From Planctomycetota bacterium (GTDB lineage: Bacteria; Planctomycetota; MHYJ01; WSZJ01): a DNA stretch of 64,000 nt. A program made the position numbers and the translations under genes. Position 1 is the first letter of the stretch. Every line of letters begins with the position of its first letter. The notes beneath the pieces are model-generated. The model was not told the DNA's origin, did no database searches, and saw only the letters and a program-made list of their open reading frames with translations. Of the stretch, positions 28,226-60,807 are shown piece after piece. The DNA is taken from the NCBI GenBank assembly GCA_038060895.1, contig JBBTCT010000011.1:1-64000 (forward strand), read 5' to 3'.

Positions 28226-29092
28226 CTACCCGCCCAACATCCGGTACCCCATCATCCTGTACGCCAGCTTCGCCGCCACAAACTGGCTCACGTTCAACCC
28301 TTCAATGGGCGCAACCTCGACGATGTCAAACCCGACGACATTCTTCTGCGCGAAAATCGGCCGCAGGAAGTCGAGCGTCTCATACCACGACAGCCCGCCC
28401 GGCTCCGGCGTTCCCGTCCCGGGCACAAGAGACGGGTCGAGCCCGTCGATGTCTACGGTGATGTAGACGTCGTCCGTCAGATGCTCCAGGAACCGCTCCA
28501 CCGCCTTGCGCTGGTCCGCCGCCGTCCGCGTCAGGTGCGCGGGCGCCGTCGCGACGAGCCCGCGATCGACGAACGGCACTTCGCTCTTCGAGAAATTCCG
28601 GATCCCCGCCTGCGCCAGCTTGCACCCCAGGTCCACCACCCGCTTCATCGCGCACGCGTGCGACCACTTCTTCCCTTCGTACTCGTCCCTCAGGTCGGCA
28701 TGCGCATCGATCTGGAAAACCGACAGCTTCGGGTGCTTCGTCCGCGCCGCTTCCACCAGCGCCGGCGTGATCGAGTGTTCGCCGCCGAGCGAAACGAGAA
28801 CCTTCCCTTCCTTCATCAGCTCCGCCGCGTGCTCGGCCAGCGCCTTGAGATAGCGCTCTCCTTTCATGCGTGCCGGCTTGAACTCGGGAAGCGTGTGGAT
28901 CCCCGCTTCGCACGTCTCGCGCAGCAGCTCTTCGTCCCAGAGCTCGACTTGACGCGATGCGTCAATGACCGCCGCCGGGCCGCCGGCCGTCCCGCCGCCG
29001 TACGAGACGCTCTCCTCGAACGGCACCGGGAGCACGAGGAACTTCGCCTTCGCCCGGTCCGACTGCGCCGGCGGAAGTCCCCCGAAATTCAT
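28226..29092 (-). CDS. speB: agmatinase
   Basis: LGGEHSIT, QIDAHADLR, TVDIDGLDPS, GTGTPEPGG; lies directly downstream of the arginine decarboxylase. Confidence 0.93.
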   Translation of the reverse strand: MNFGGLPPAQSDRAKAKFLVLPVPFEESVSYGGGTAGGPAAVIDASRQVELWDEELLRETCEAGIHTLPEFKPARMKGERYLKALAEHAAELMKEGKVLVSLGGEHSITPALVEAARTKHPKLSVFQIDAHADLRDEYEGKKWSHACAMKRVVDLGCKLAQAGIRNFSKSEVPFVDRGLVATAPAHLTRTAADQRKAVERFLEHLTDDVYITVDIDGLDPSLVPGTGTPEPGGLSWYETLDFLRPIFAQKNVVGFDIVEVAPIEGLNVSQFVAAKLAYRMMGYRMLGG

Positions 29093-48577: not shown

Positions 48578-50314
48578 TTACTTGTCGGCCTCGACCAGCC
48601 GGTTCTTCCCGCCATACTTCGCCCGGTACTGCGCCGCGTCCGCGCGCGCAATCAGGCTCTCCGGAGTGTCGCCGCTTCTCAACTCCGCCAACCCGATCGA
48701 CGCCGTGATCCGGATCTTCCCGACCGCGCCGCCGTCGATTTCCGCCGACCTCACCGCCTCCAGCACCGAGAGACACACGGCTCTCGCTTCCGAGAGCGTC
48801 GCCCCCGGGAAAATCACGGCGAATTCCTCGCCTCCGTACCGCGCCGGGAAATCGGCGGGGCGCACGGACCGCTTCACCGCGTCTCCGATGGCGCGAAGGA
48901 CGGCGTCGCCGGCCGGGTGGCCGTGCGTGTCGTTCACTTTCTTGAAGTCGTCGAGGTCCGCGATCGCGAGCGAGAGCGGGCGCCGGGATTTCTGCGCGGC
49001 GGCGAGATAAACCTCGAGCTTGTAGAAAAAATGCTGCCGCACGAAGAGCCGGGTGAGCGAGTCGACGGTGGCGCGCTCATAAAGGCGGGCGTTGTGGAGC
49101 GCGACGCCGACCGCGCGGGCGAGGACGGCGAGGAGCTCGAGGTCGCGTTCATTGAAGGGACGGCCGCCGATTTTGTCGGCGACGTTGATGGCGCCCAGAA
49201 GATCGGCGCCCTCGGAGGCGGAAGCGAAGATGGGGACGATGGCGAACGAATCGGTTTTGAAGCGCTTGGAGCGGGAGTAGCCCTCCGGGGGCTGGCCGGT
49301 CGCGGGATCGGGGCAGAGGAGGGACTTCCCGGTGGCGAGGACGCGGCCGCACATGCCTTCGCCTACCTTGATGAGGTGCTGGGTGGGATCGGTCTTGCGC
49401 GGGTTGACGGCGCGGACGATTCGGGCCGACTTTCCGCCGGGCTCGAGCTCGGCAATGGAAACGTGAGAGGCCTTGAAAATCGAGCGTGCGAATCCGACGG
49501 CCTCGCCGAGAATCGGCTCGCGCTCGAGATAGCCGGAGAGCCACATCGTGGCTTTCTCGATCGACATCAGGAGCCGGCTGTACTCCTCCATCTGCCGTGC
49601 GTTCCGGCTGTTCTCGGCAGCGACGGCGGCGATCAGCGACATGGCCGTGAGCAACTCCACGTCGCGCTCCGGCAGTCCTCCCGGCTCGGGCCCCTCGATC
49701 ACGAGGGCGCCGAGCGCGTGCGTCCGCGCGGCGAGCGGCAGGACGAGCAGCACGCCTGAAGTTGCAGCTCCGCCCGCGACGACGGCGTTCTGAAGCGCCG
49801 GAAGGGTCGGATAGGAAGCCTCGAGCAACGGAGGGGCCTCGCTTCCGCGCGCGCAAGCCGCCACGCGCTCCAGGTTTCCGCCGTCCTCGGTGGAAAGCCA
49901 TGCGGCGGCGCGCCGGGCGGCCGTTTCCTCGAGCAGGACCGCGAGCGCCGTCCCCAGGGCAGCCGGGAGGTCCTGCCCGCCGGTCAGGACGGCGGCGACC
50001 CGGTAGAGCGCGCCGAGGTGAGGGACGCGGCGGTCGATCGTCGAGGTATCCTCGTTGCGAAAGAGGAAGCGGACGCCGGCGAGCGCGATGACGTCGCCTG
50101 TCCGGAGCGCGTGTTCCCTGGTTTCGGCGTCGTTGACCCGGAATGGGTGGGCGGCGGTTGCGACGTAGCGCCTGCCGGCGTGGCGGATTTCCACTCCATC
50201 GCGAGCTCCGGGAACCGGGATGGCGTCGGATTCGGGCCCGCCGAGCAGCACGACGGCGCCGAGGGGGAAGCGCTGTCCGGTTGAAGGCCCGTCGAGGGAG
50301 AGGAGGAAAGACAT
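48578..50314 (-). CDS. diguanylate cyclase with degenerate FHA-like and two GAF domains
   Basis: N-terminal FHA-like fold (LRTGDVIAL), two GAF segments, DSLTRLF, RPAD I-site, RYGGEEF. Confidence 0.9.
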   Translation of the reverse strand: MSFLLSLDGPSTGQRFPLGAVVLLGGPESDAIPVPGARDGVEIRHAGRRYVATAAHPFRVNDAETREHALRTGDVIALAGVRFLFRNEDTSTIDRRVPHLGALYRVAAVLTGGQDLPAALGTALAVLLEETAARRAAAWLSTEDGGNLERVAACARGSEAPPLLEASYPTLPALQNAVVAGGAATSGVLLVLPLAARTHALGALVIEGPEPGGLPERDVELLTAMSLIAAVAAENSRNARQMEEYSRLLMSIEKATMWLSGYLEREPILGEAVGFARSIFKASHVSIAELEPGGKSARIVRAVNPRKTDPTQHLIKVGEGMCGRVLATGKSLLCPDPATGQPPEGYSRSKRFKTDSFAIVPIFASASEGADLLGAINVADKIGGRPFNERDLELLAVLARAVGVALHNARLYERATVDSLTRLFVRQHFFYKLEVYLAAAQKSRRPLSLAIADLDDFKKVNDTHGHPAGDAVLRAIGDAVKRSVRPADFPARYGGEEFAVIFPGATLSEARAVCLSVLEAVRSAEIDGGAVGKIRITASIGLAELRSGDTPESLIARADAAQYRAKYGGKNRLVEADK

Positions 50315-50362
50315 CGAGGGGATTGTAGCGGGGCGATGGGATGCGCGAAGAAAGGACTGACG

Positions 50363-51271
50363 TCAAACAGACAATTTTGAATATTGATCTTTGCCTCTGC
50401 CAGCCAGTTTCTCCGCTTCTTTCACCATCTCCACCGCGATGTCCTTCTCCGTCGCCTCTTCGAGCCCCTGGAACCCCGGTGACGAGTTCACCTCGAGCAC
50501 CACCAGGCCTCCCCTGGACTCGAGCAGGTCCACGCCGGCGACGCGCAGCCCCACGACCTCCACGGCGCGAACAGCGAGCTCGCGCAGTTCCTTCGTCAAC
50601 TCGACCCGTTCTCCCACGCCGCCCCGGTGAATGTTGGAACGGAAGTCTCCCGGCTTCGCGGTGCGCCGCATCGCCGCGACCGCTTCCCCGCCGATCACCA
50701 GAACCCGCACGTCGCGTCCGCGCGACTCGGAAATGAATTTCTGCGCCAGGATGTCTTCGCCCAGAGACCAGACGGTGTCCATGATCGACTCGGCTGCCTC
50801 GGCCGACTCCGCGAGCAGCACGCCCGCCCCCTGCATCCCGCGGAGCAGTTTCAGGATCACCGGCGACCCTCCTAACTCCTCGATCGTGTCGGCGAGATGT
50901 GTCGGGAACCGCATCAGTGTCGTCGGCGGGACGGGAATGCCGCGCGCGGCGAGCGCCTGCAGGCTCGCCCACTTCTGCTTGGCCAGGGCAATTCCCGCGG
51001 ACGCATTGAGCACGGGGACGCCCATCATTTCGAACTGCCTCACGACGGCAAGCGCATATTCGATCGCGTACGAGCCGACGCGCGGGATCACGGCGTCGAT
51101 CCCCGTCAGGTCCTCCCCCGCGACGCGCACCTTTGCGGCACCACGCTCAAGGTGTAGCACGCAGCGAAGCGGGTCCACCACCAGGCACCCGTGCCCCTCG
51201 ATCCGCGCCGCTTCGCGCAGACGCCTCGTCGAGTAGATCGCCGGCTTCCGCGACAGCACCAGGAACTTCAC
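50363..51271 (-). CDS. rimK: RimK-family ATP-grasp alpha-L-glutamate ligase
   Basis: YSTRRLREAA, DAVIPRVG, QGAGVLL, GRDVRVLVIG, FRSNIHRGG, LEVNSSPG; GTG start overlapping the GH57 stop. Confidence 0.9.
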   Translation of the reverse strand: MKFLVLSRKPAIYSTRRLREAARIEGHGCLVVDPLRCVLHLERGAAKVRVAGEDLTGIDAVIPRVGSYAIEYALAVVRQFEMMGVPVLNASAGIALAKQKWASLQALAARGIPVPPTTLMRFPTHLADTIEELGGSPVILKLLRGMQGAGVLLAESAEAAESIMDTVWSLGEDILAQKFISESRGRDVRVLVIGGEAVAAMRRTAKPGDFRSNIHRGGVGERVELTKELRELAVRAVEVVGLRVAGVDLLESRGGLVVLEVNSSPGFQGLEEATEKDIAVEMVKEAEKLAGRGKDQYSKLSV

Positions 51272-52863
51272 CGCTTCTCCTCCGGCGCAAACGCGCGCCA
51301 GTCGATTTCCGGGAACGCATTGTGCCGCGATTCGAGCTGCGAAACGAGCGTCTCGTCGATGCTCCCGGCGCGGAGCTGGGAATGCAAGCGATGGAAGGAC
51401 TCGACGTGGATCTTGAAGCGCTTGTGGGCGTAAGGGACGGCGGTGTCGGCGTTCATGATGAAGGCCCAGTCGGACGACTGGGCGAGGAGTGTTTCGCGTG
51501 CGGCCTGGTTCAGGGCGCGTCTCGTGAGCCCGTCTGCTCCGCGGTGATCCCGCGCGAGCGAGACCATGCGCTCTTCGACCACGTGCTGGTGACGGTAGAT
51601 CCAGTCGTTGGTCGGGTTGAGCCAGACTTCGCAGTATCCCTTGTCCCCCCAGGTCGAAAGGGTGGGGGTCGCGCGCTGGACGCGCGCGCCCGAGCCGAGA
51701 ATGTCGCGCGGCGTTGAAAACAAAACATCGGTCTGCGCCCCCGCGCGCCGCAGCAGTTCCGCCAGGAACTGCGGCCCCTCGTACCACCAGTGCCCGAACA
51801 GCTCCGCGTCGTACGGCGACAGAACCGTCGGCGCGCGGCCCAGCGTCGCCGCCAGGTGACGCACCTGCTCCTGCCTGTTGAAGAGAAAGTTCGCGGCATG
51901 GACGCGCGCGCGCCCGGCCGCAGCATCCGGGTCGTAGGGCTGCTTCTCGTTCAACGGCACTCGTCCCGTGATCCGGTAGTACTTGATCCCCAGGTTCCGC
52001 CGCACGCCGTCCGCATGCAGGTATGGCTTTACGTACGACTCTTCCCCGTCGTACCCCAGGTCCCGGTAAAACTCCCGGTACGCGGCGTCGCCCGGATAGC
52101 CCTCGCTCGCGCTCCACACCTGCCGGCTCGACTCAATGTCCCGCCCGAACGCGCAGACCCCCGAAGGCGTGCGCACCGGCGCGTAGATCGTGTACTTCGG
52201 CCGCGGCGCGGCGTACGCGATCGCGTGCGTCTCGACGCAGAAATAGGAGATCCCCTCCTCCGCCAGGATCGCGTCCTGCCCTGGCCGGTACCCGCACTCC
52301 GGCAGCCAGATCCCCGCCGGCCGCCGCCCGAAGTGCTTCTCATAGTTCGCTGCCGCGACACGCACCTGCGCCCTCACCGCTTCCGCGCACGACATCAGCG
52401 GGAAAAACCCGTGCGTCGCGCCGCACGTCAGGATCTCGATCCGCCCGGCGTCCTGCAGCCGCCTGAAGCCGCGCAGGATGTTGCGGCCGTGCTCGTCCTC
52501 GAACACCATGCGCGCGCGCCGGAAAGAATCCAGGTAGTGGCGCGCCGTGCGATTCAGAAGCGGCTCGTGCCGCGTGCGCTCGACCTCGCGCCCCGCAAGG
52601 TCGATCAGCCGGTGAAGCCTCCGAAGGTAGCGGGCCTGGAGAAGCGGGTCCGCAAGCATCTCGCAGAGCGGCGGCGACAACGCGATCGAGAATCGTGCGC
52701 GGACGCCCTCCTGCTCGAGATCTTCACCCATTTCCAGCAGCGGCAGGTACGTCTCCGTGATCGCTTCGTACAGCCAGTCCTCTTCCAGGAACTCGTCGTG
52801 CTCCGGGTGGCGCACAAACGGGAGGTGGGCATGCAGAAGGAGGAGGACGTTGCCTTGAGGCAT
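51268..52863 (-). CDS. GH57 1,4-alpha-glucan branching enzyme (DUF1957)
   Basis: LLLHAHLPFVRH, EAITETYLPL, GIWLPECGY, PYDAELFGHWWYEG, LLAQSSDWAF. Confidence 0.93.
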   Translation of the reverse strand: MPQGNVLLLLHAHLPFVRHPEHDEFLEEDWLYEAITETYLPLLEMGEDLEQEGVRARFSIALSPPLCEMLADPLLQARYLRRLHRLIDLAGREVERTRHEPLLNRTARHYLDSFRRARMVFEDEHGRNILRGFRRLQDAGRIEILTCGATHGFFPLMSCAEAVRAQVRVAAANYEKHFGRRPAGIWLPECGYRPGQDAILAEEGISYFCVETHAIAYAAPRPKYTIYAPVRTPSGVCAFGRDIESSRQVWSASEGYPGDAAYREFYRDLGYDGEESYVKPYLHADGVRRNLGIKYYRITGRVPLNEKQPYDPDAAAGRARVHAANFLFNRQEQVRHLAATLGRAPTVLSPYDAELFGHWWYEGPQFLAELLRRAGAQTDVLFSTPRDILGSGARVQRATPTLSTWGDKGYCEVWLNPTNDWIYRHQHVVEERMVSLARDHRGADGLTRRALNQAARETLLAQSSDWAFIMNADTAVPYAHKRFKIHVESFHRLHSQLRAGSIDETLVSQLESRHNAFPEIDWRAFAPEEKR

Positions 52864-52989
52864 GAAGTGCGCCGAAATGGGGGGCGGGACGGTAGCAGGA
52901 TGTGAGGTCGGTGGGAAGAGAGTCGAGTCGCCACTCGCTGCCCGCAACTCCGCAAAGGGAAAACTGCGGAATCCGGTAGAATCTTCGTC

Positions 52990-53730
52990 ATGCCAATACC
53001 CGCCATCGGGAGGTCAGCACCGTTCGCTCTCGCACTGCTCGCGCTTCTTTCCGCCTGTGGCGATCCTCCCCCTCGGCGATCCCGCGAGGAGGACGACGAC
53101 TGGGCCCGAGGAGCGCGCGACGGCTCGACCGGACAGGGACTCAATGTCCGCGTCGATGTCCAGGCCTACGAAGTCGATGACCGCGATGCGGAAGGATGGT
53201 CGCTCTTCTGGGGGGCATCGGTCCCGATCGGAAGCGCGCGCCTTTCCATCAACGGCCTGCGCGCGGCGACGGGCGGCGCTTCGTTCTTCGCCCGGCTCGA
53301 CACGTGGCAGAGGCGTTCGTCCGTGAAGCGGAAGACGGAGTCGTTCCTGGTGACGGCGGATGGGTCCCCGGCCTCGCTGGAAGTCAGCGAGCGAGTCGCT
53401 GAGCCTGTGACGATCGTGTTTCTCGACAACGGACAGGTGATCGACACCTTCCGGTGGTCGAAGGCGGGGGCGCTTCTGGAAGTGACGCCCCGGCGGAACG
53501 GTGACGGCACGGTGACGGTGAGGGTGCATCCGGTGGTTGCGCACCGTGAAGGGGCCGGGCGGACTTCGTTCGCGCAGTTGGACACGGAGGTGACGGTGAA
53601 AGAAGGGGAAGCGATTGTGATCGGGGGGAATCAGACTTCGCAGGACACGATTGGCTCGACGCTCTTTTCACGCTGGGAGAGCAGCAGGCGATACCGGCTG
53701 GTTTTTGTTCTGAGGGCGAGGAGCTGGTAG
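52990..53730 (+). CDS. lipoprotein with a short secretin-like (T2SS/T3SS GspD C-terminal) domain
   Basis: LSAC lipobox; GALLEVTPR...VTVRVHP...LDTEVTVKEGEAIVIGG...LVFVLRA secretin pattern. Confidence 0.7.
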   Translation: MPIPAIGRSAPFALALLALLSACGDPPPRRSREEDDDWARGARDGSTGQGLNVRVDVQAYEVDDRDAEGWSLFWGASVPIGSARLSINGLRAATGGASFFARLDTWQRRSSVKRKTESFLVTADGSPASLEVSERVAEPVTIVFLDNGQVIDTFRWSKAGALLEVTPRRNGDGTVTVRVHPVVAHREGAGRTSFAQLDTEVTVKEGEAIVIGGNQTSQDTIGSTLFSRWESSRRYRLVFVLRARSW

Positions 53731-53762
53731 CGAGAGGCGAGATGTTAGGCAACATTTGGTGA

Positions 53763-53816
53763 ATTAAGAAACGTTACCTGCGGGTAGCCGCTTCCAGAAA
53801 AGTAACATTTCTTAAT
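53763..53816 (+). promoter_or_regulatory. putative bEBP enhancer (UAS), copy 1
   Basis: 15-bp inverted repeat ATTAAGAAACGTTAC / GTAACATTTCTTAAT (1 mismatch) containing CGTTAC-N5-GGTA-N15-GTAAC. Confidence 0.7.
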
Positions 53817-53905
53817 GAAACTAGATTAAGTTCGCTTAACCTACGACGTAAGATATTGGTTTCAAAGTAGTTACGTCACATATATTTTCGGAAGTACAGC
53901 CCCTT

Positions 53906-53921
53906 GGGCATTCGGCTTGCG
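53906..53921 (+). promoter_or_regulatory. sigma54 -24/-12 promoter
   Basis: GGGCATTCGGCTTGCG = GG-N10-GC, downstream of an AT-rich tract. Confidence 0.75.
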
Positions 53922-54066
53922 ACTACTCCCCCCGACCGAGTCTCTACAAACTCAGATCACCCGTCTTACTGTGGAGGAGCCGAGCGAACGAGACTTGTGG
54001 AGACGAGTCCTGACGACTTCAGCGATTCACTGACTTTCGACGGTATAAAACACAGGAGGGGCCAAG

Positions 54067-57000
54067 ATGATCAGGAAAGGTATGGAGAACAACCGAGGCT
54101 TCGTGCTACTCGTAGCACTGGGCGTCCTCGGCGTTCTCGGCCTCCTTGCGGCGACGTTCGCCACGCTGTCCCGCGTTGAGCGGGCGGTGTCGAACAGTTA
54201 CGTCGACAAGGTTCGGGCCAAAATGCTCGCCCAGTCCGGGGTCGAGCGCGCCATCGCTTCTATTCGCGGCCGCGCGATGATCCAGGCCTGGGACGACCAG
54301 CGCAACGACTGGTACTACCGCGAGATGCTCAACGCGGAGACCGGCACGCTGGTGTACCCGCCGGTCGTGAAGACGGATCTCTGGAAGTTCGTGCCGACGC
54401 GCGCGTACGGGATGCCCCCGCGCTCGCTGGAGTCAGCTCTCGATGACGGCATCGTCAATGCGGTTGCCAACGGCGTCTCGTTCCCCCAGTCGCTCTCGCC
54501 TTCGGCCAACGAGCCGTTCAGCGGGCAGTTCCCCGGGACGTACGAGAACCGCGGCGACGTTTACGCTCTCAAGGTTCTTGACTGCGCGTCCATGATCAAC
54601 GTGAACGACGGCGGCAAGAACACTGTCCGGATGCTCACGAACCTCGGCACGATCCTCAAGTGCGCCGACGGCTCGCTGCTCAACACCGGCGGCTTCGACC
54701 TCGGCGCCCAGATCTCCACCAAGGCGATCGCCCGCGGCAAGCCCTTCAACAACAAGTCCGAAGTGCTCGCCGACGTGTTCATCAATAACACCTTCTTCGC
54801 AGGAAACGCGACGGAAGCCCGCAAGCGCTTCGCCGCGGTGCAGAACTTCATCACCACGCACGGCTGGATCGACGGGATGACGACCAAGTTTGAAAACACC
54901 TGGTTGCCCGTCGCTGGGAACTACGTCGGCGGCAGCTGGGCGTCGGCGATCTCGAGCACCGGAACCGCACCGTCCGATTCGAAGTTCGCCGAAGCGGGCT
55001 CCATGCCCGTCGAGGTGGCGGCCGTGATCGACCCGGTGGACACCAAGATGTCCTCAGTGCCGATGTCCTTCGAGTGCACGACGAATCCGCTCTACATGAT
55101 TTCCGCTTCCGTCCCCGGCGCCTACGCGACGCTTCCTTCCACGCGCCTGCTCGCGGCTCCGGGACCGGTGATGGTGAAGGACATTTCCAAGGGCGGCGCC
55201 TTCAAGCAGTTCGTGACCGGCCAGGGGTCGAGCATCCCGCTCGGCGGCGAGACGAAGGCCGGCAAGTTCGGCGGCACGTATTACCTTGGCGAGCCCCGGA
55301 CACCGATCAACGTCAACACCGCGTCGAAGGAAGTCCTGGTGGCGACGATGATGAACCTGGAAGCCGACTTCTGGGACTACCAGGTGGTGTCAGAATCCAC
55401 CACGCCGAAGATGTACAACGCCCGGCTTGGGAACGTGAACGTCAAGATCCTGCAGGCAGATGCCGAAAAGATCGCGGACTACATCATTTCCGCTCGCTTC
55501 ACCAACGGCAGCCCCGCGGGAGCCTGGTCGTTCAACGACTGGATGCACTTCGAGGACGACATCCTCCTCGCGATCCCGGGCATCACGCGGTTCCAGAAGG
55601 CGCTCGTGAAGGCCAATGCGAACCCGAACTCGAACATCAAGAAGATGAACCCGGACCTGATCCTGGTGACTTCGAATCCTTCCATCAATCCGGACGAGCT
55701 GGTCCGGATCGACAAGAGCGACATCAAGGTCAGCTCGACGGAGTGGACGTTCAGCTCGAACGGGATCTTCGAGATCGAATCGATCGGGCGCGTGTACAAC
55801 TCCGGCAAAATCATGGCCGAAGAAAAGATCGAGACCGTCGTGAAGGTCTTCGACCAGGTCGTGTACACGACGCAGGAACAGTTCGAGAAGGACCGCATCT
55901 GGACGGTTGAGGACTCCAAGGAAGGCGACCTGCTGGCGGGCGGTTATCCGCCGGTGGTTTCCATGCCCGAGTACCTCTACAACGCCAAGACGAACCCGGT
56001 TCACTATCGCAGCCAGACGGGCGACGTGACCTGGTGCGCGGACTACGAGGGGTACATGATCCTCAACGGTCCCGCGAACGTTCAGGCAGGCATCACGCCC
56101 GGCCCGGCCAAGACGGGAACCACGAGCTGGGGCAGCGGCGTCCCTGGCGAGTCCTGCTGGGGGCCTGATCCGTATGTGAAAGTGAAGGGCTCGCCGCCTC
56201 CGCCCGCAGGATTGAAGGCTTGCGCGGTCTCTTTCGTGGCCGGCTTCAACCTGGCTTCGCTCTATCCGAACCAGAGCCATCGCAACAAGGACCACGACCC
56301 GTCGCAGGCCGGAACTCAGACGCCGCGGCATCCGGAGTACTCCTACTCGTCGCCGCATTGCTTCGGTGACGGTGTGTACATGAGCGCTTCGCCGGCGATT
56401 TCCTTCACGCAGGACGCCAACTACATGAGCGCGTACTACAGCCCGAAGGAGCCGTACCAGATCAAGCCGACGAGTTCCGGCGCGAATTTCTGGGACATGG
56501 GCTGCGATCTGCAGAACTTCGGCGTGTACATCAACCAGACCCGTCGCAACCGGTTCCACACGTACTGGGCCGACGAGGTTCCGGCGCCGAACTGCACGCT
56601 CGAGATGACGGTCAAGCCTGAGAACGACCTCTGGCATTGGGCCAACGCCAGCAAGCCGCACACGATCGCGGGCTGGTCCGGCACTTACCAGGTCTTCGCC
56701 TGCAAGCGTCAGTTCCTGTTCGACTGGGGCACTGGCGGCACGGCCGGCATGAACTACACGATCCGTGGTTACGCGGAACTGACGCGCGTCTACCTGGAGA
56801 TGTACCACCACGCGACAAGCACGTTCTACGTGCTGTGGCACGACAACACCTGGAAGCCTCATACCTGGCACCATGTGGAGTTCTCGTGGGTCAGCGCTTC
56901 AGAGATCCTCGCATCCGACGGCGTCACGCTCATCACGGTGCCCGCGAACGCGATGCTGTGGGTCGATGGCTCGACCAACGGTTCGGGAACTTCCAGCATG

Positions 57001-57729
57001 GCGAAGCAGCCCGGCGTTGTAGAAGACGTGAATACCAAGCTGTCTCTTCCGATTTACGGCGGCGCGGCGATCGTTCTCCCTGAGAACGTCACGCCGGCCA
57101 ATCCGAACAAGGACATTGGCACGGGGCCGCGCCTGGACATCGGCGGCATCCTGGCCAACGACGGATCGTTCGGGATGAGCTCTCCCCGCTGGCACGGCAC
57201 CATCGACAACATCGTGATGCACCACTGGCGGAGCCACACCACGTCCTTCACTCCCCGCAACCGCTACCACAGCATGACCTACTACGATGGCACCACGTGG
57301 AAGACGGGCGAGGGGTACAAGAGTGAGCGGGCCGGCGTCTACAAGAAGCGTTTGACCTACCTTGAAAGCGTCGCCGCAACGAAGGACATCACGATCGGAA
57401 CGGTGGGCTGCACGCACTACCATCCGTTCCACGTCCACCTGTACGGGCACGATGGCAGCGCCCCGACGACCTCGTTCGGGCACATCACGCCCAGCCTGCG
57501 CATCAAGACCGGCGGATCGTACGTCGACTCCTACTACTATGACGGTTGCGTCGGCGTGCCGGTGAAGACTCAGCTCAAGGTCGGATCCGAGGCCTACTAC
57601 CTGGGCTGGTTCGAGATCGCGGCCCTCGTGCCGGTGACCATGTCGCCGATCCTGTGCGACATCCGGATCACCTACTTCGAGGAACCGCAGACCCTGTACC
57701 GCCTGTCGAGCTCGGAAGCCAAGAAGTAG
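54067..57729 (+). CDS. large PilX/GspK-like minor (pseudo)pilin with C-terminal LamG-like domain
   Basis: Class III prepilin-like N-terminus NRG/FVLLVALGVLGVLGLLAATF, RAKMLAQSGVERAI, two GspK-like INVN(T)A motifs, WHHVEFSW...LWVDG...WHGTIDNI (LamG-like); SD CAGGAGG. Confidence 0.8.
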   Translation: MIRKGMENNRGFVLLVALGVLGVLGLLAATFATLSRVERAVSNSYVDKVRAKMLAQSGVERAIASIRGRAMIQAWDDQRNDWYYREMLNAETGTLVYPPVVKTDLWKFVPTRAYGMPPRSLESALDDGIVNAVANGVSFPQSLSPSANEPFSGQFPGTYENRGDVYALKVLDCASMINVNDGGKNTVRMLTNLGTILKCADGSLLNTGGFDLGAQISTKAIARGKPFNNKSEVLADVFINNTFFAGNATEARKRFAAVQNFITTHGWIDGMTTKFENTWLPVAGNYVGGSWASAISSTGTAPSDSKFAEAGSMPVEVAAVIDPVDTKMSSVPMSFECTTNPLYMISASVPGAYATLPSTRLLAAPGPVMVKDISKGGAFKQFVTGQGSSIPLGGETKAGKFGGTYYLGEPRTPINVNTASKEVLVATMMNLEADFWDYQVVSESTTPKMYNARLGNVNVKILQADAEKIADYIISARFTNGSPAGAWSFNDWMHFEDDILLAIPGITRFQKALVKANANPNSNIKKMNPDLILVTSNPSINPDELVRIDKSDIKVSSTEWTFSSNGIFEIESIGRVYNSGKIMAEEKIETVVKVFDQVVYTTQEQFEKDRIWTVEDSKEGDLLAGGYPPVVSMPEYLYNAKTNPVHYRSQTGDVTWCADYEGYMILNGPANVQAGITPGPAKTGTTSWGSGVPGESCWGPDPYVKVKGSPPPPAGLKACAVSFVAGFNLASLYPNQSHRNKDHDPSQAGTQTPRHPEYSYSSPHCFGDGVYMSASPAISFTQDANYMSAYYSPKEPYQIKPTSSGANFWDMGCDLQNFGVYINQTRRNRFHTYWADEVPAPNCTLEMTVKPENDLWHWANASKPHTIAGWSGTYQVFACKRQFLFDWGTGGTAGMNYTIRGYAELTRVYLEMYHHATSTFYVLWHDNTWKPHTWHHVEFSWVSASEILASDGVTLITVPANAMLWVDGSTNGSGTSSMAKQPGVVEDVNTKLSLPIYGGAAIVLPENVTPANPNKDIGTGPRLDIGGILANDGSFGMSSPRWHGTIDNIVMHHWRSHTTSFTPRNRYHSMTYYDGTTWKTGEGYKSERAGVYKKRLTYLESVAATKDITIGTVGCTHYHPFHVHLYGHDGSAPTTSFGHITPSLRIKTGGSYVDSYYYDGCVGVPVKTQLKVGSEAYYLGWFEIAALVPVTMSPILCDIRITYFEEPQTLYRLSSSEAKK

Positions 57730-57757
57730 ACACTCGCTCTTAGCAGAAAATCATTCC

Positions 57758-57797
57758 CCGACGCCGCCGGCAACCCCGGCGGCGTCGGCTTTTTTTG
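57758..57797 (+). terminator. intrinsic terminator
   Basis: CCGACGCCGCCGG caacc CCGGCGGCGTCGG followed by CTTTTTTT. Confidence 0.9.
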
Positions 57798-57827
57798 AGC
57801 GGAGCTCAAGCGAAGATCCGCTGCCGC

Positions 57828-57863
57828 CGTTACCCGCAGGTATCGAGGAACGCAAATCGTAAC
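57828..57863 (+). promoter_or_regulatory. putative bEBP enhancer (UAS), copy 2
   Basis: CGTTAC-CCGCA-GGTA-N16-GTAAC. Confidence 0.7.
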
Positions 57864-57962
57864 GCGCGGAATTCCACGGCCCCGCCGCTCGTTGAGACTT
57901 TGACACAACTGGAGTTGCGCTCTTGACTTCCATCGAATGAAATTGAACGCGGAGGCCCCATC

Positions 57963-57978
57963 GGGCACCCGGCTTGCG
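57963..57978 (+). promoter_or_regulatory. sigma54 -24/-12 promoter
   Basis: GGGCACCCGGCTTGCG = GG-N10-GC, about 50 bp before ATG 58028. Confidence 0.75.
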
Positions 57979-58027
57979 ACGTTGGACCTTGGGACTTCCT
58001 GCAACCTCATTGCGGAGACTTCACGAC

Positions 58028-59128
58028 ATGCGCTTCCTCGCTTCGATCGCCATCGCGCTTCTCGCCGCCTCGACGGCCAGCGCTCACGTTGGTTACAAGA
58101 TCAAGATGTCCGCCACCTACAAAGAGACGAGAAAGGGTGATACGACATTCCGCAACATCTTCGTCTCCGGCCACGCGCACTACCCGGATGGAACGGTGCT
58201 TGTGGTCATGATCCGGCCTGAGAAGGGTGGGTATCTGCCGCTCAGCGTCAAGGGAACGGTTCAAAAGGAAGAATTCGCCGCGGAAATGGGCCCGTGGCGC
58301 GAGGGCTTCCCTTCCGGCAAGTACGTCTGCGAGGCCTGGTTCGAGTTTGAGAAGCAGTCGGAGGGTGTGAAGAGCCTGCTGCGCGAGACGGAAGAATTCG
58401 CGAAGTGCCTGAAGGACGATCCGACTTACCAGGAGAGATACAAGCTGGAGAATCCCGAGAGGTACGAGAAGTTGATGCGGCAGATCGCCGGATCCGGGAA
58501 GTGCGCGTCGAACAAGCAGTTCGGGACGTGCGAGTTGAGCATCGGGTCGGCGGATGAAGCGGCGCAGTCTGGCGAGGCGGAGCGGGCATTTCTTCGGGAT
58601 CGGGCGGACTACGTGAAGGACATGTTGTCTGAGCTGGTCAAGGCGCACGCGAAGCATTCGGACCCGAACAAGGGTGCCGACGCGACAGCGGAGTCGTTCC
58701 AGCTCTGGGCGACGGAATTCGAGAATCAGCTGGGGCAGCTTGACGAGGAAGTGACGGGGAAGCTGACAGGGATGGTGTTCAACGCGAAGAAGGACACTTA
58801 CGACAATCTGGCGCAGTCGATCATGGCGCTGGGAGATCTGGAGAGGACGATTCAGGCGGAGTTGTACGGCGAGTCGTCCAAGAAGCTGGCGGAGTTGCAG
58901 GCGTTGAATGACAAGGGCGAGAAGAACCTCGACAAGGACCAGAAGCGGCGCCGGGAGGTCCTGAAGAGGGAGCTGAGTTCGGTGCAGTCGAATCGGGAGG
59001 ACGGCGCCAAGCGGGTTGTGGAAAGCCTGGCGGAGACGAGATTCGGGCACAAAGGGCTGGATCCGGCGCCCGAGAGGAAGAAGAAGTACGTGGAGGAGTT
59101 GAAGGAGGAGTTTGGCTTCCAGTGGTAA
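58028..59128 (+). CDS. exported hypothetical protein, YPDGT-domain paralogue 3
   Basis: Signal peptide MRFLASIAIALLAASTASA; VSGHAHYPDGTVL...GKYVCEAWFE; helical C-terminus; SD GGAG. Confidence 0.8.
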   Translation: MRFLASIAIALLAASTASAHVGYKIKMSATYKETRKGDTTFRNIFVSGHAHYPDGTVLVVMIRPEKGGYLPLSVKGTVQKEEFAAEMGPWREGFPSGKYVCEAWFEFEKQSEGVKSLLRETEEFAKCLKDDPTYQERYKLENPERYEKLMRQIAGSGKCASNKQFGTCELSIGSADEAAQSGEAERAFLRDRADYVKDMLSELVKAHAKHSDPNKGADATAESFQLWATEFENQLGQLDEEVTGKLTGMVFNAKKDTYDNLAQSIMALGDLERTIQAELYGESSKKLAELQALNDKGEKNLDKDQKRRREVLKRELSSVQSNREDGAKRVVESLAETRFGHKGLDPAPERKKKYVEELKEEFGFQW

Positions 59129-59187
59129 TCGTGAGGGATTCAGGGGTCGAGAAGCGGGATCCGGGGTAGGCGCAGGGCTCGGTTTCT

Positions 59188-59223
59188 CGTTACTCCCGGG
59201 TAACATGGACCCTGTCACGTAAC
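59188..59223 (+). promoter_or_regulatory. putative bEBP enhancer (UAS), copy 3
   Basis: CGTTAC-TCCCG-GGTA-N16-GTAAC. Confidence 0.7.
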
Positions 59224-59310
59224 CTCCAGCTGGACCAAAGGCGTTTCGATCTATTACTTAAATACATGGCTAATAACGACTTGTGACGTAAATAAGCGGA
59301 TCCGCGACCA

Positions 59311-59326
59311 AGGCACGGTGCTTGCG
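59311..59326 (+). promoter_or_regulatory. sigma54 -24/-12 promoter (near consensus)
   Basis: AGGCACGGTGCTTGCG versus consensus TGGCACG-N4-TTGC. Confidence 0.85.
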
Positions 59327-59400
59327 AAAAGGGTCTATCGAAGTTGGGATCTCACACGTGTGAGATCAGGTGATTCAAGTCCCTTTAGAAGGAGATTCAC

Positions 59401-59625
59401 ATGAAGGCTCTCATCCTCGTTGTGGCGCTGGTGGCCGTGATTGCGGCGCCGGTCCTGTGCTTCGCTTGCCCTCCCCCTCCGGCGCCGGGTTATGACGGCG
59501 GCGGCGCGGGCGACGGTCCTGGCCCCGGCGGCGACGGCGGCGGCGGGTCCGACACGGGTGGCGATGACACCGACAGCGGCGGGTCGGGCTCGGGCGACGC
59601 CGGCACGGGAAACGTGACCGCCTAG
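59401..59625 (+). CDS. small exported Pro/Gly/Asp-rich peptide (74 aa)
   Basis: Strong SD AGAAGGAG; signal peptide; mature part CPPPPAPGYDGGG...; has its own promoter and terminator. Confidence 0.8.
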   Translation: MKALILVVALVAVIAAPVLCFACPPPPAPGYDGGGAGDGPGPGGDGGGGSDTGGDDTDSGGSGSGDAGTGNVTA

Positions 59626-59663
59626 TTCGGTCCTGAACGCGAGTAAGACTTCAGTCAGATCAG

Positions 59664-59698
59664 AAAACGCCGCCGGCCAAAAGCCGGCGGCGTTTCGC
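59664..59698 (+). terminator. intrinsic terminator
   Basis: AAACGCCGCCGGC caaaa GCCGGCGGCGTTT. Confidence 0.75.
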
Positions 59699-59760: not shown

Positions 59761-60807
59761 ATGCTGAAATCACTCGTCGCCTCCGCCGTCGTCGCCGCCT
59801 GTACCATCGGCGGCATCGTAGCCGTGCGCAAATCCTCCCCGGCGTACCCCGACTACAGCCTGCTCAACGCGCGCCTTCACGACCCGAACCCCGCAGTCCG
59901 CCAGGCCACGGTCACCGAAATGTTCCAGAAGGCGGACCTCGCCGCGACCCGCGCTCTCCTCTCCGTCGCACGCGAAAATGATTCGACCGTACTCGGCAAT
60001 CTCAACTTCGCCCTCCTGTCCACCCGCAACAAGCCCTCCGTCGATTGGCTCACTTCAGAGGGCCTCACCTTCCCTGAACGCTGGACTCGCTACTACGCCG
60101 TCCGCATCCTCTGGCGGGAAGAAAACACGGCCGCGCTCCCGCGACTCCTCCCGCTCCTCGCCGATAACTACTGGCAGGTCCAGGTCGCCATCCTCGACGC
60201 ACTCGCAGAGTCCGGCGACCTTTCGCAGGCCGGCGAACCCCTCGGCGCCGCCGCTTCACCTGGAAAAAACTGGGAAGTCCGCTCGCGCGCCATCCGCCTC
60301 CTGGGCCAGGCGAATTCCGCCGCGGCCGCACGCACACTCCTCGAAAAGGCTCTCCCTCCCACGACAGGTCCTGCGGAGTCCGAGGCGGAACGAGCCGTGG
60401 AAGAGGCGCTTTCCGGCATGACGGACGCCGATGCGCTCAAAGTGGTGGCCGAGGGACTGACCGGGACGGATCTCACTCGAAAACTCCTCGCCGTGAAGGT
60501 GCTGGGCCGGGCGAAGAGCTCGGATGCGGTGGCAAAGTTCAAAGAAATTGCCGGTGACGCAACCGCCGCTACGCCGCTTCGCATCGCGGCCATCCGCGCG
60601 CTGGTGCTGGCGGGAGGCGAAGAGGGCGTCTCTTCGACAATCAAGGCGATGGACGGCGGAGAGGCCGCGATCAGGCTGGAAGCGGCGTACGCGCTCTCGG
60701 AAGCGACCTTGAGCCCTGCACAGAAAGACGAAGTGAAGGCGCTGGCTGCGAAGGAGCAGGATTGGCGCGTGAAGCAGGCGCTTCAGATCGCTGCGGGAGA
60801 ACGCTGA
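59761..60807 (+). CDS. membrane-anchored HEAT/PBS-lyase repeat protein
   Basis: N-terminal hydrophobic helix; repeats DPNPAVRQA, WQVQVAILDAL, WEVRSRAIRLLG, IRLEAAYAL. Confidence 0.85.
   Translation: MLKSLVASAVVAACTIGGIVAVRKSSPAYPDYSLLNARLHDPNPAVRQATVTEMFQKADLAATRALLSVARENDSTVLGNLNFALLSTRNKPSVDWLTSEGLTFPERWTRYYAVRILWREENTAALPRLLPLLADNYWQVQVAILDALAESGDLSQAGEPLGAAASPGKNWEVRSRAIRLLGQANSAAAARTLLEKALPPTTGPAESEAERAVEEALSGMTDADALKVVAEGLTGTDLTRKLLAVKVLGRAKSSDAVAKFKEIAGDATAATPLRIAAIRALVLAGGEEGVSSTIKAMDGGEAAIRLEAAYALSEATLSPAQKDEVKALAAKEQDWRVKQALQIAAGER

Follow-up and report, generated by a model that had tools for sequence, protein, structure and literature searches.

Three sigma-54 promoters with a shared upstream dyad as probable members of one regulon for type IV filament subunits in an uncultured planctomycete

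In Pseudomonas aeruginosa and Myxococcus xanthus, PilS-PilR together with sigma-54 drives the pilin genes. Here we describe a comparable arrangement in an uncultured groundwater planctomycete, located in the first 64,000 nucleotides of its contig C11 (the window): three consecutive genes, each behind a sigma-54 promoter and a shared upstream dyad. Judged from the DNA sequence, these three units probably belong to one regulon, in which an NtrC-family activator would act through the dyads and switch on type IV filament subunits. According to the respective papers, PilRX of the Xanthomonas oryzae RpoN2-PilRX system also regulates its own gene (PMC7170775), pilR of Geobacter sulfurreducens sits beside pilA, activator genes lying by their targets (PMC2725144), and in commensal Neisseria the type IV pilin genes are under RpoN-IHF-Npa/Nps control (PMC6528607).

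Our locus shares with the PilR systems a sigma-54 activator of the response-regulator type, pilin genes on -24/-12 promoters, and an activator gene, here the candidate P0001, beside its targets. Because control of pilin genes by sigma-54 and a PilR-type regulator is well known, the regulatory logic is not undescribed. An earlier note on this DNA had put the module forward as a candidate undescribed one, which is too broad for the mode of control but stands for the motif, the orphan regulator and the cargo. Unlike PilR targets, which center on one major pilin, the putative targets here are sets of pseudopilins, a giant K-type subunit and orphan exported proteins. The dyad GTTAC-N6-GTAAC was not met in the portions of the PilR/sigma-54 literature consulted, and among papers on Planctomycetes with sigma-54 and pili, judged by their titles, we found no description.

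The assembly under study (G000; other G numbers denote relatives, C numbers contigs) has 5,418,064 base pairs (bp) in 47 contigs and 65.8% G+C, and the window is G000:C11:1-64000. The closest database proteins to genes 1 and 2 come from metagenome-assembled genomes of Planctomycetes. The three open reading frames, all on the plus strand, span 54067-57729 (1220 amino acids, aa), 58028-59128 (366 aa) and 59401-59625 (74 aa). The promoter GG lies at 53907, 57964 and 59312, and the upstream motif CGTTAC-N5-GGTA-N15/16-GTAAC at 53772, 57828 and 59188, giving motif-to-GG distances of 135, 136 and 124 bp, all as the earlier note had claimed. The boxes share the form GGCAY-N5-TTGCGA and, as GGCAT/GGCAC-N5-TTGCGA, agree with the extended sigma-54 consensus TGGCAC-N5-TTGCW; PMC2725144 quotes the published consensus as YTGGCACG-N4-TTGCW. 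The core of the upstream motif is the palindrome GTTAC-N6-GTAAC, followed 13-14 nucleotides on by a third GTAAC. The features of the three units are as follows.

53772..53806, plus strand: predicted upstream activator site 1, with the near-palindrome GTTACCTGCGGGTAGC at 53773-53788 and a third half-site GTAAC at 53802-53806; kept before the gene-1 orthologues of G004 and G002.
53807..53887, plus strand: AT-rich tract from site 1 to promoter 1, 65% A+T (genome 34%), best 30-bp window 0.73; possible bending region.
53907..53922, plus strand: sigma-54 -24/-12 box 1, GGCATTCGGCTTGCGA; predicted start near 53931.
54067..57729, plus strand: gene 1, 1220 aa, an exported modular pseudopilin resembling GspK/PilX, whose C-terminal half probably holds a ConA-like (LamG) lectin part.
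57758..57795, plus strand: intrinsic terminator of unit 1, a 13-pair stem (57758-57788) followed by T7; an RNA-library contig ends at 57762.
57828..57863, plus strand: predicted upstream activator site 2, GTTACCCGCAGGTATC at 57829-57844 and GTAAC at 57859-57863; kept in 6/6 orthologous loci.
57964..57979, plus strand: sigma-54 box 2, GGCACCCGGCTTGCGA; predicted start near 57988; in 6/6 loci, 135-137 bp from the site.
58028..59128, plus strand: gene 2, a 366-aa exported protein of an orphan family, with a signal peptide, a beta-sandwich with YPDGT and a long helical bundle.
59188..59223, plus strand: predicted upstream activator site 3, the exact palindrome GTTACTCCCGGGTAAC at 59189-59204 and GTAAC at 59219-59223; kept in G004 and G002.
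59312..59327, plus strand: sigma-54 box 3, GGCACGGTGCTTGCGA; predicted start near 59336; G004 and G002 keep this box at an unchanged distance.
59348..59367, plus strand: perfect 20-bp palindrome in the gene-3 leader, GATCTCACACGTGTGAGATC; an operator or RNA hairpin, forming an 8-pair hairpin in the fold; partly present in G004 and G002.
59401..59625, plus strand: gene 3, a 74-aa exported peptide with a signal peptide, the stretch CPPPPAPGYDG and a Gly/Asp/Ser-rich acidic tail.
59665..59695, plus strand: 13-bp GC-rich hairpin closing unit 3, with an A-run before and a short T-run after; read by eye, not called by the terminator scan.

Clear terminators had been claimed for units 1 and 3; the one after unit 1 is clear, with its 13-pair stem and T7, and the hairpin after unit 3 has a short T-run and was not called by the scan. 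No terminator was found between units 2 and 3. The upstream pattern matches three times in the window, where 0.00 matches were expected from 100 dinucleotide shuffles, and GGCAY-N5-TTGCGA three times versus 0.09 expected, with 0/100 shuffles reaching three. On both strands of the whole of G000 the upstream composite occurs three times, always in this window, and the box pattern 20 times, three of them here. The earlier note had named the lack of rpoN as an outcome contrary to sigma-54 control; an rpoN gene is present (Sigma54_DBD, 209 bits, in a 562-aa frame on C10), as are 21 strong sigma-54 activator genes, all outside the window. The leader RNAs fold no better than shuffles (z -0.36, -1.33 and -1.45, the last for the gene-3 leader), and a search of Rfam gave a single sub-threshold match, sX6, at 16.5 bits against a threshold of 40.

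Across G000, the exact dyad GTTAC-N6-GTAAC occurs four times (C9:230969, C9:455011, C9:456844 and C11:59189), and 23 times when up to one mismatch is allowed; 10 of these 23 sit 50-220 bp upstream of a sigma-54 box. Counted from the promoters, such a palindrome stands no more than 220 bp upstream of 9 among 269 loosely defined sigma-54 boxes, namely the three in the window and those at C9:455091, C9:455348, C9:461009, C9:230871 (minus strand), C22:180733 and C9:112499. As a control we took all 60 permutations of the half-site letters and counted site-box coincidences: GTTAC gave 10 from its 23 sites, against a mean of 0.85 from a mean of 73 sites. The dyad is thus tied to sigma-54 boxes, and does not occur at the background frequency that had been named as evidence to the contrary. 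The next best permutation was GTATC (5/29), with three exact GTATC-N6-GATAC dyads 67-101 bp upstream of boxes (C5:27505, C5:29202 and C12:64161), two of them beside the activator gene C5:29637-30131, which adjoins a histidine kinase gene. This set proved to be a second true sigma-54 regulon, an internal positive control for the method.

Outside the window, the site-box pair precedes two pseudopilin operons flanking the P0001 activator gene, a gene-2 paralogue on C22 and two further exported proteins. One of these, the 302-aa product of the C9:230871 promoter, has no detectable kinship to the gene-2 family (hhalign probability 0.7%). The P0001 gene sits within a cluster of about 11 pseudopilin genes on C9. 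On its upstream side, two tandem site-box pairs precede genes for a GspG-like protein of 176 aa and a J-like protein of 262 aa. On its downstream side come four pseudopilin genes, a site-box pair and another five pseudopilin genes, followed by a hairpin that by eye resembles a terminator.

Comparison with relatives, which the earlier note had proposed as a check, showed that in the same-genus genomes examined sites, boxes and spacing are kept before the orthologues of genes 1-3 and that the intervening DNA has diverged. The gene-2 orthologues have dyad and box in 6/6 genus loci, 135-137 bp apart, and when the six upstream regions are aligned nothing is invariant beyond GTTAC, GGTAxC, part of the third half-site and GGCA..TTGC. 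In the gene-2 paralogue group (C22-type) the box is found in 7/7 loci and the dyad in 5/7. Upstream of gene 1 the pattern detects the box in 6/8 regions; in G006 a GG-N10-GC is visible by eye only, and in G005 gene 1 lies directly behind gene 2 with no promoter of its own. Gene 3 is a real gene: its orthologues, 72-74 aa long, each come with a separate dyad and box, 121-123 bp apart. Throughout the genus the exact dyad occurs at 33 sites in 8/8 genomes, 2-7 in each, with 0 for the reversed control, and the composite site is present in 17/56 genomes of the class (control 0/56). Dyad and box also precede GspK-like genes in other families of the class, in G053, G034 (family f5), G009 (f3) and G024 (f13).

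The distances from site to box fall into classes of 76-80, 103-104, 113-114, 119-125, 134-137 and 157-161 bp among 53 distinct genus promoters. Classes about 11 bp apart agree with the remark in the earlier note that the shorter third spacing keeps the helical phase. The Rayleigh R for these 53 promoters is 0.48 at period 11, a statistic overstated by the relatedness of the loci, and because of that relatedness we take the periodicity as a hint. AT-rich tracts are confined to promoters with spacings of at least 104 bp, tracts rich in TTAA and similar to 53807..53887 occur in relatives, and G000 has two genes of the HU/IHF family.

NtrC-type oligomers nucleate on paired dimer sites. In distant families of the class the site consists of two full dyads 3-4 bp apart, which resembles such paired sites. 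Unlike the tandem dyads of NtrC, in this genus the second dyad is represented by one half-site, and the promoter lies 65-160 bp away. We propose that an NtrC-family response regulator, with P0001 as the best candidate, would bind the GTTAC-N6-GTAAC dyad and half-site 65-160 bp upstream of a -24/-12 box, oligomerise there and reach the sigma-54 holoenzyme through DNA looping, which the AT-rich tract probably aids in the long-spaced promoters; the activator would then open the promoter. The regulon would turn on type IV filament subunits, with the GspG/H-, PilV- and J-like pseudopilins of C9 and gene 1 as a K/PilX-type tip carrying a lectin-like module, and with genes 2 and 3 as co-expressed exported partners.

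The products of the three genes bear on what is being made. The default Pfam threshold gave 0 matches for genes 1-3. The N-terminus of gene 1 is a hydrophobic pilin-type helix without the Glu5 position. Its best-scoring curated models are NCBIfam Verru_Chthon cassette protein A (23.9 against a cut-off of 332.3) and then T2SS_GspK, a profile of 307 positions that matches the N-terminus with E 1.7e-4 (21.2 against 130); both are far under cut-off, and T2SSK aligns with residues 414-432 at E 0.067 (14 bits against 24.2). Within the gene-1 family (n=21), T2SSK matches 14/21 members (best E 0.0032), PilX_N 6/21 (best 1e-5) and Laminin_G_3 2/21 (best E 0.0038), and gene 1 itself has no Pfam match for Laminin_G_3. 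A search of the C-terminal half against the Atlas gave 20 Laminin_G_3 clusters among 30 named matches, with scores up to 0.95. The beta-sandwich part of the gene-1 model, itself of low confidence, returned nine Foldseek matches at E <=0.001; matches to laminin LG, pentraxin and a sialidase carbohydrate-binding domain range from E 5e-5 to 8e-4. Together these results make a ConA-like lectin module in gene 1 probable, as judged from the model and family matches. The family profile found no match among PDB sequences (best E 0.33), and a homologue search with residues 400-610 for shorter proteins returned fragments only.

Modular pilins, in which an extra module is grafted on a pilin, include S. 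sanguinis PilB (vWA) and PilC (ConA-like lectin), CofB and ComZ, a design set out in PMC8179133. Gene 1 resembles them in its pilin-type helix, its weak T2SSK/PilX_N family matches and a bulky, probably ConA-like lectin module. It is unlike GspK in its length, 1220 aa against the 307-position profile, in scores below the cut-offs, and in a fold read from a poor model (predicted local distance difference test, pLDDT, 48.5).

A second likeness is to the Verru_Chthon cassette, which occurs in Verrucomicrobia. Its proteins A-D (TIGR02600, TIGR02599, TIGR02596) are uncharacterised and pilin-like, and they too combine one giant protein, A, with a profile of about 1300 positions, with small prepilin-type proteins. 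The C9 genes encode the prepilin N-terminal motif and show similarity to GspG, GspH/Verru_Chthon D, PilV and Verru_Chthon C, below the curated cut-offs: the 262-aa and 303-aa pseudopilins match protein C (31-34 against 256.5) and the 206/207-aa ones protein D (26-27 against 70). The A and C models align with N-terminal stretches only. Unlike the cassette, whose members are adjacent, here C11 holds the A-like gene, which has its own sigma-54 promoter and no linkage to the other pseudopilin genes, and C9 holds the C/D-like genes. A literature search for Verru_Chthon found no paper.

Gene-1 family matches are present in 40/41 genomes (G000 and 40 relatives from genus, order and class). Genes 1 and 2 are neighbours, in either order, in all six genomes holding both. 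The gene-2 family has 18 members among 5.8 billion proteins, and the gene-2 model (pLDDT 84.9) shows a beta-sandwich and a long helical bundle; no solved relative was found for it by Foldseek at E <=0.001 (best 0.016), and the Atlas gave no lead (best 0.78).

Two observations concern the copy number of these families. The order-level relatives G008-G011 have 20-26 gene-1 family matches per genome, and tandem copies lie in G004:C79; this multiplication looks like a diversified repertoire of tip subunits, and with at least 20 matches per genome in these relatives the tips could be interchangeable. The gene-3 family is tandem in relatives, with three copies in G004 (C113:27221-30236) and two in G002 (C75), each with dyad and box, which suggests that the peptide is needed in large amounts.

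We infer that gene 1, as a K/PilX-like member, would complete the set of fibre subunits in the regulon, and the earlier guess at an appendage fits a co-regulated set of GspG/H/PilV/J-like pseudopilins to which gene 1 would belong. The strongest alternative keeps the same regulation and reads the product as a type II secretion-like pseudopilus, with genes 2 and 3 and other exported products as secreted cargo. In its favour, GspG and GspH are the models with the highest scores for the pseudopilins, the GspK model fits the gene-1 N-terminus (E 1.7e-4), and hydrophobic N-termini like those of signal peptides are found in the products of genes 2 and 3 and of the C22 paralogue and in the 302-aa and 547-aa proteins, none of which falls in a fibre family. 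However, all those scores are under curated cut-offs, the PilV model of type IV pili matches too, a PilT-like ATPase gene lies 4 kilobases (kb) past the C9 operon, and the tip adhesins of pili described in PMC8179133 are a parallel to a K-type subunit of 1220 aa that bears a lectin-like module. We therefore regard a secretion pseudopilus as possible but doubtful, and the filament as the better account.

On the side of the regulator, P0001 (G000:C9:456887-458251, 454 aa) is an NtrC-type response-regulator activator with Response_reg (PF00072, E 1.3e-23), Sigma54_activat (PF00158, E 1.1e-66), AAA_lid and a Fis-type helix-turn-helix, HTH_8 (PF02954, E 6.7e-10); its closest solved chains are 4l4u, 5m7n and 1ny5, NtrC, NtrC1, NtrC4 and NtrX being the closest solved relatives. 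Unlike PilR, its best NCBIfam models are AtoC, NtrC and the PEP-CTERM regulator (PEP_resp_reg), and the PilR model is absent from its 25 best rows. Since it falls below every curated equivalog cut-off, we treat it as a generic NtrC-family orphan response regulator rather than as a PilR orthologue; the arrangement also differs from PilS-PilR in that no kinase gene is close to it.

Two dyads, GTTACCGCACGGTAAC and ATTACGGAGCGGTAAC, stand at -43 and -20 of the P0001 start codon, and we infer that they may confer autoregulation. In its same-genus orthologues (81-96% identity) half-sites are kept at -43, -32 and -9 in 7/7 loci and the 6-nucleotide spacers differ. P0001 is the sole activator gene in G000 with dyads directly before it; a one-mismatch dyad at C36:85299 is about 1.5 kb beyond another activator gene. 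In each genus genome with a P0001 orthologue a dyad also lies 1.0-3.4 kb upstream, at a pseudopilin promoter. On the strength of the conserved dyads at its own gene and at the surrounding operons, P0001 is the best candidate for the dyad-binding activator. The proposal in the earlier note of a single activator encoded outside the window is supported, genome-wide and comparatively, because of the dyads at P0001, the site-box pairs and their conservation in relatives.

The dyad might instead belong to another regulator, whether one of the 20 remaining activators or a protein of a different kind, with P0001 merely lying within the cluster. The helix-turn-helix of P0001 is of the common Fis type, its four readable distant orthologues have no dyads nearby and G000 offers 21 candidate activators, all of which would fit this idea. 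It is nevertheless unlikely: dyads directly at their own gene are seen only for P0001 and are kept in 7/7 orthologous loci, activator genes in the published cases consulted adjoin their targets (PMC2725144), and the GTATC regulon obeys the same rule, with its dyad next to the C5 activator gene. Finally, that the likeness of the three units is a relic of promoter-cassette duplication, or chance, with no present common control, is very improbable, since the adjacency of the units and the duplication of gene-3 units along with their promoters in relatives are outweighed by upstream regions that lack similarity to each other outside the half-sites and box, by orthologous regions that have diverged everywhere but in these elements, and by the recurrence of these elements ahead of unrelated genes, both on further contigs and in other families, and chance is excluded by the shuffles and the half-site permutation control.

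Several findings weigh against control of a type IV filament by P0001 through the dyads. The right half-sites of sites 1 and 2 depart from the dyad (GTAGC and GTATC), and the E. coli IHF consensus has 0 matches in nine site-to-box intervals. None of the four readable distant P0001 orthologues (50-56% identity; a fifth, from G011, was left out of the counts) has dyads. The sigma-54 contact loop of P0001 reads GAFTDA, not GAFTGA; GAFTDA is also found in six same-genus and 3/4 readable distant orthologues, and GSFTDA in one other G000 activator. There is no histidine kinase gene within 100 kb of P0001, the nearest HATPase_c gene on C9 being about 160 kb off. The pair C9:455011/455091 has no plausible open reading frame behind it, and assembly machinery for polymerising these subunits was not identified. 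Gene 1 is under the cut-offs of PF03934, PF14341, NF037980 and all curated families, and with a whole-protein model as poor as noted above no GspK chain appears among its Foldseek matches.

The expression data also count here. They consist of assembled contigs from four RNA libraries, three from one aquifer sample and one from an ice study, which may include DNA and do not map starts. An RNA contig at 57937-58128 begins 27 nucleotides upstream of box 2, and another at 59148-59331 covers site 3 and box 3; contigs reaching over these elements indicate read-through or DNA carry-over there. Gene 1 is covered by contigs of all four libraries at 95-100% identity, which fits expression in nature and is not proof of it. 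The leftmost contig edge for gene 1 lies at 53945, against a predicted start near 53931, and carries little weight. The stretch 53382-53863 has no contig in the four runs, which, with three runs from one sample, carries no weight, and the depths are unusable for ranking genes.

Some neighbouring features of the C9 cluster are of separate interest. At C9:455011-455270, the first tandem pair before the A/B operon, a long GC-rich hairpin and a T-rich run lie downstream of the box, and the orphan pair at C9:455011 is kept in G002, G003, G005 and G007; a small RNA, a leader or a reserve promoter are possible readings of it. A 17-bp palindrome, TTGACGC-N3-GCGTCAA, has 52 exact copies in G000, or 105 when up to two mismatches are allowed, among them those in the window at 28949, 31569 and 34429. 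At C9:455143 and 455384 it follows both pseudopilin A/B sigma-54 boxes, about +36 to +52 from GG, a placement kept in the same four relatives (G002, G003, G005 and G007), and it could be a global-regulator site or an RNA hairpin. At C9:464558-469338, within 5 kb past the pseudopilin cluster, are a 968-aa Ser/Thr kinase-like gene and the PilT-like ATPase gene (350 aa), which could be a signal input or a retraction motor.

In the window, an unrelated group upstream of the module (48578-52947, minus strand) encodes a GAF-GGDEF diguanylate cyclase, a RimK-like ATP-grasp protein and a GH57 branching enzyme. Adjoining site 1 on its upstream side (52990-53730, plus strand) is a gene for a 246-aa predicted lipoprotein (LSAC lipobox) whose sole domain is the secretin C-domain (PF00263, E 4.6e-11); it is much shorter than usual secretins and has no sigma-54 box of its own, and the same gene is also found 5' of gene 1 in G002. 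Beyond unit 3 lies a HEAT-repeat gene (59761-60807); its promoter match is sigma-70-like, and it lacks a sigma-54 box.

The arrangement has the look of a PilR-type switch controlling a surface fibre about which little is known. More tentatively, we suggest that it may serve an uncharacterised, class-wide planctomycete type IV filament with a 1000-1300-aa K-type pilin showing a lectin-like module at the tip, the gene-2 protein as a dedicated exported partner always encoded next to it, an abundant acidic Gly-rich gene-3 peptide and an orphan response regulator that turns on the whole set, used for capture of polysaccharides or particles or for attachment in groundwater. The regulatory logic itself is familiar; the novelty lies in the phylum, in the motif and the orphan regulator, and in a list of putative targets that brings unlinked pseudopilin operons together with a giant K-type subunit and orphan exported proteins. 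Very few transcriptional circuits are known in the Planctomycetota, and for one uncultured lineage of this phylum the present work provides a concrete, testable one of motif, promoter, candidate activator and targets. Genes on three contigs, annotated as 'hypothetical', would thereby be joined in one pilus-like module resembling the Verru_Chthon cassette, and the circuit could offer a way to trace the remaining parts of the machine and the signal that it answers to.

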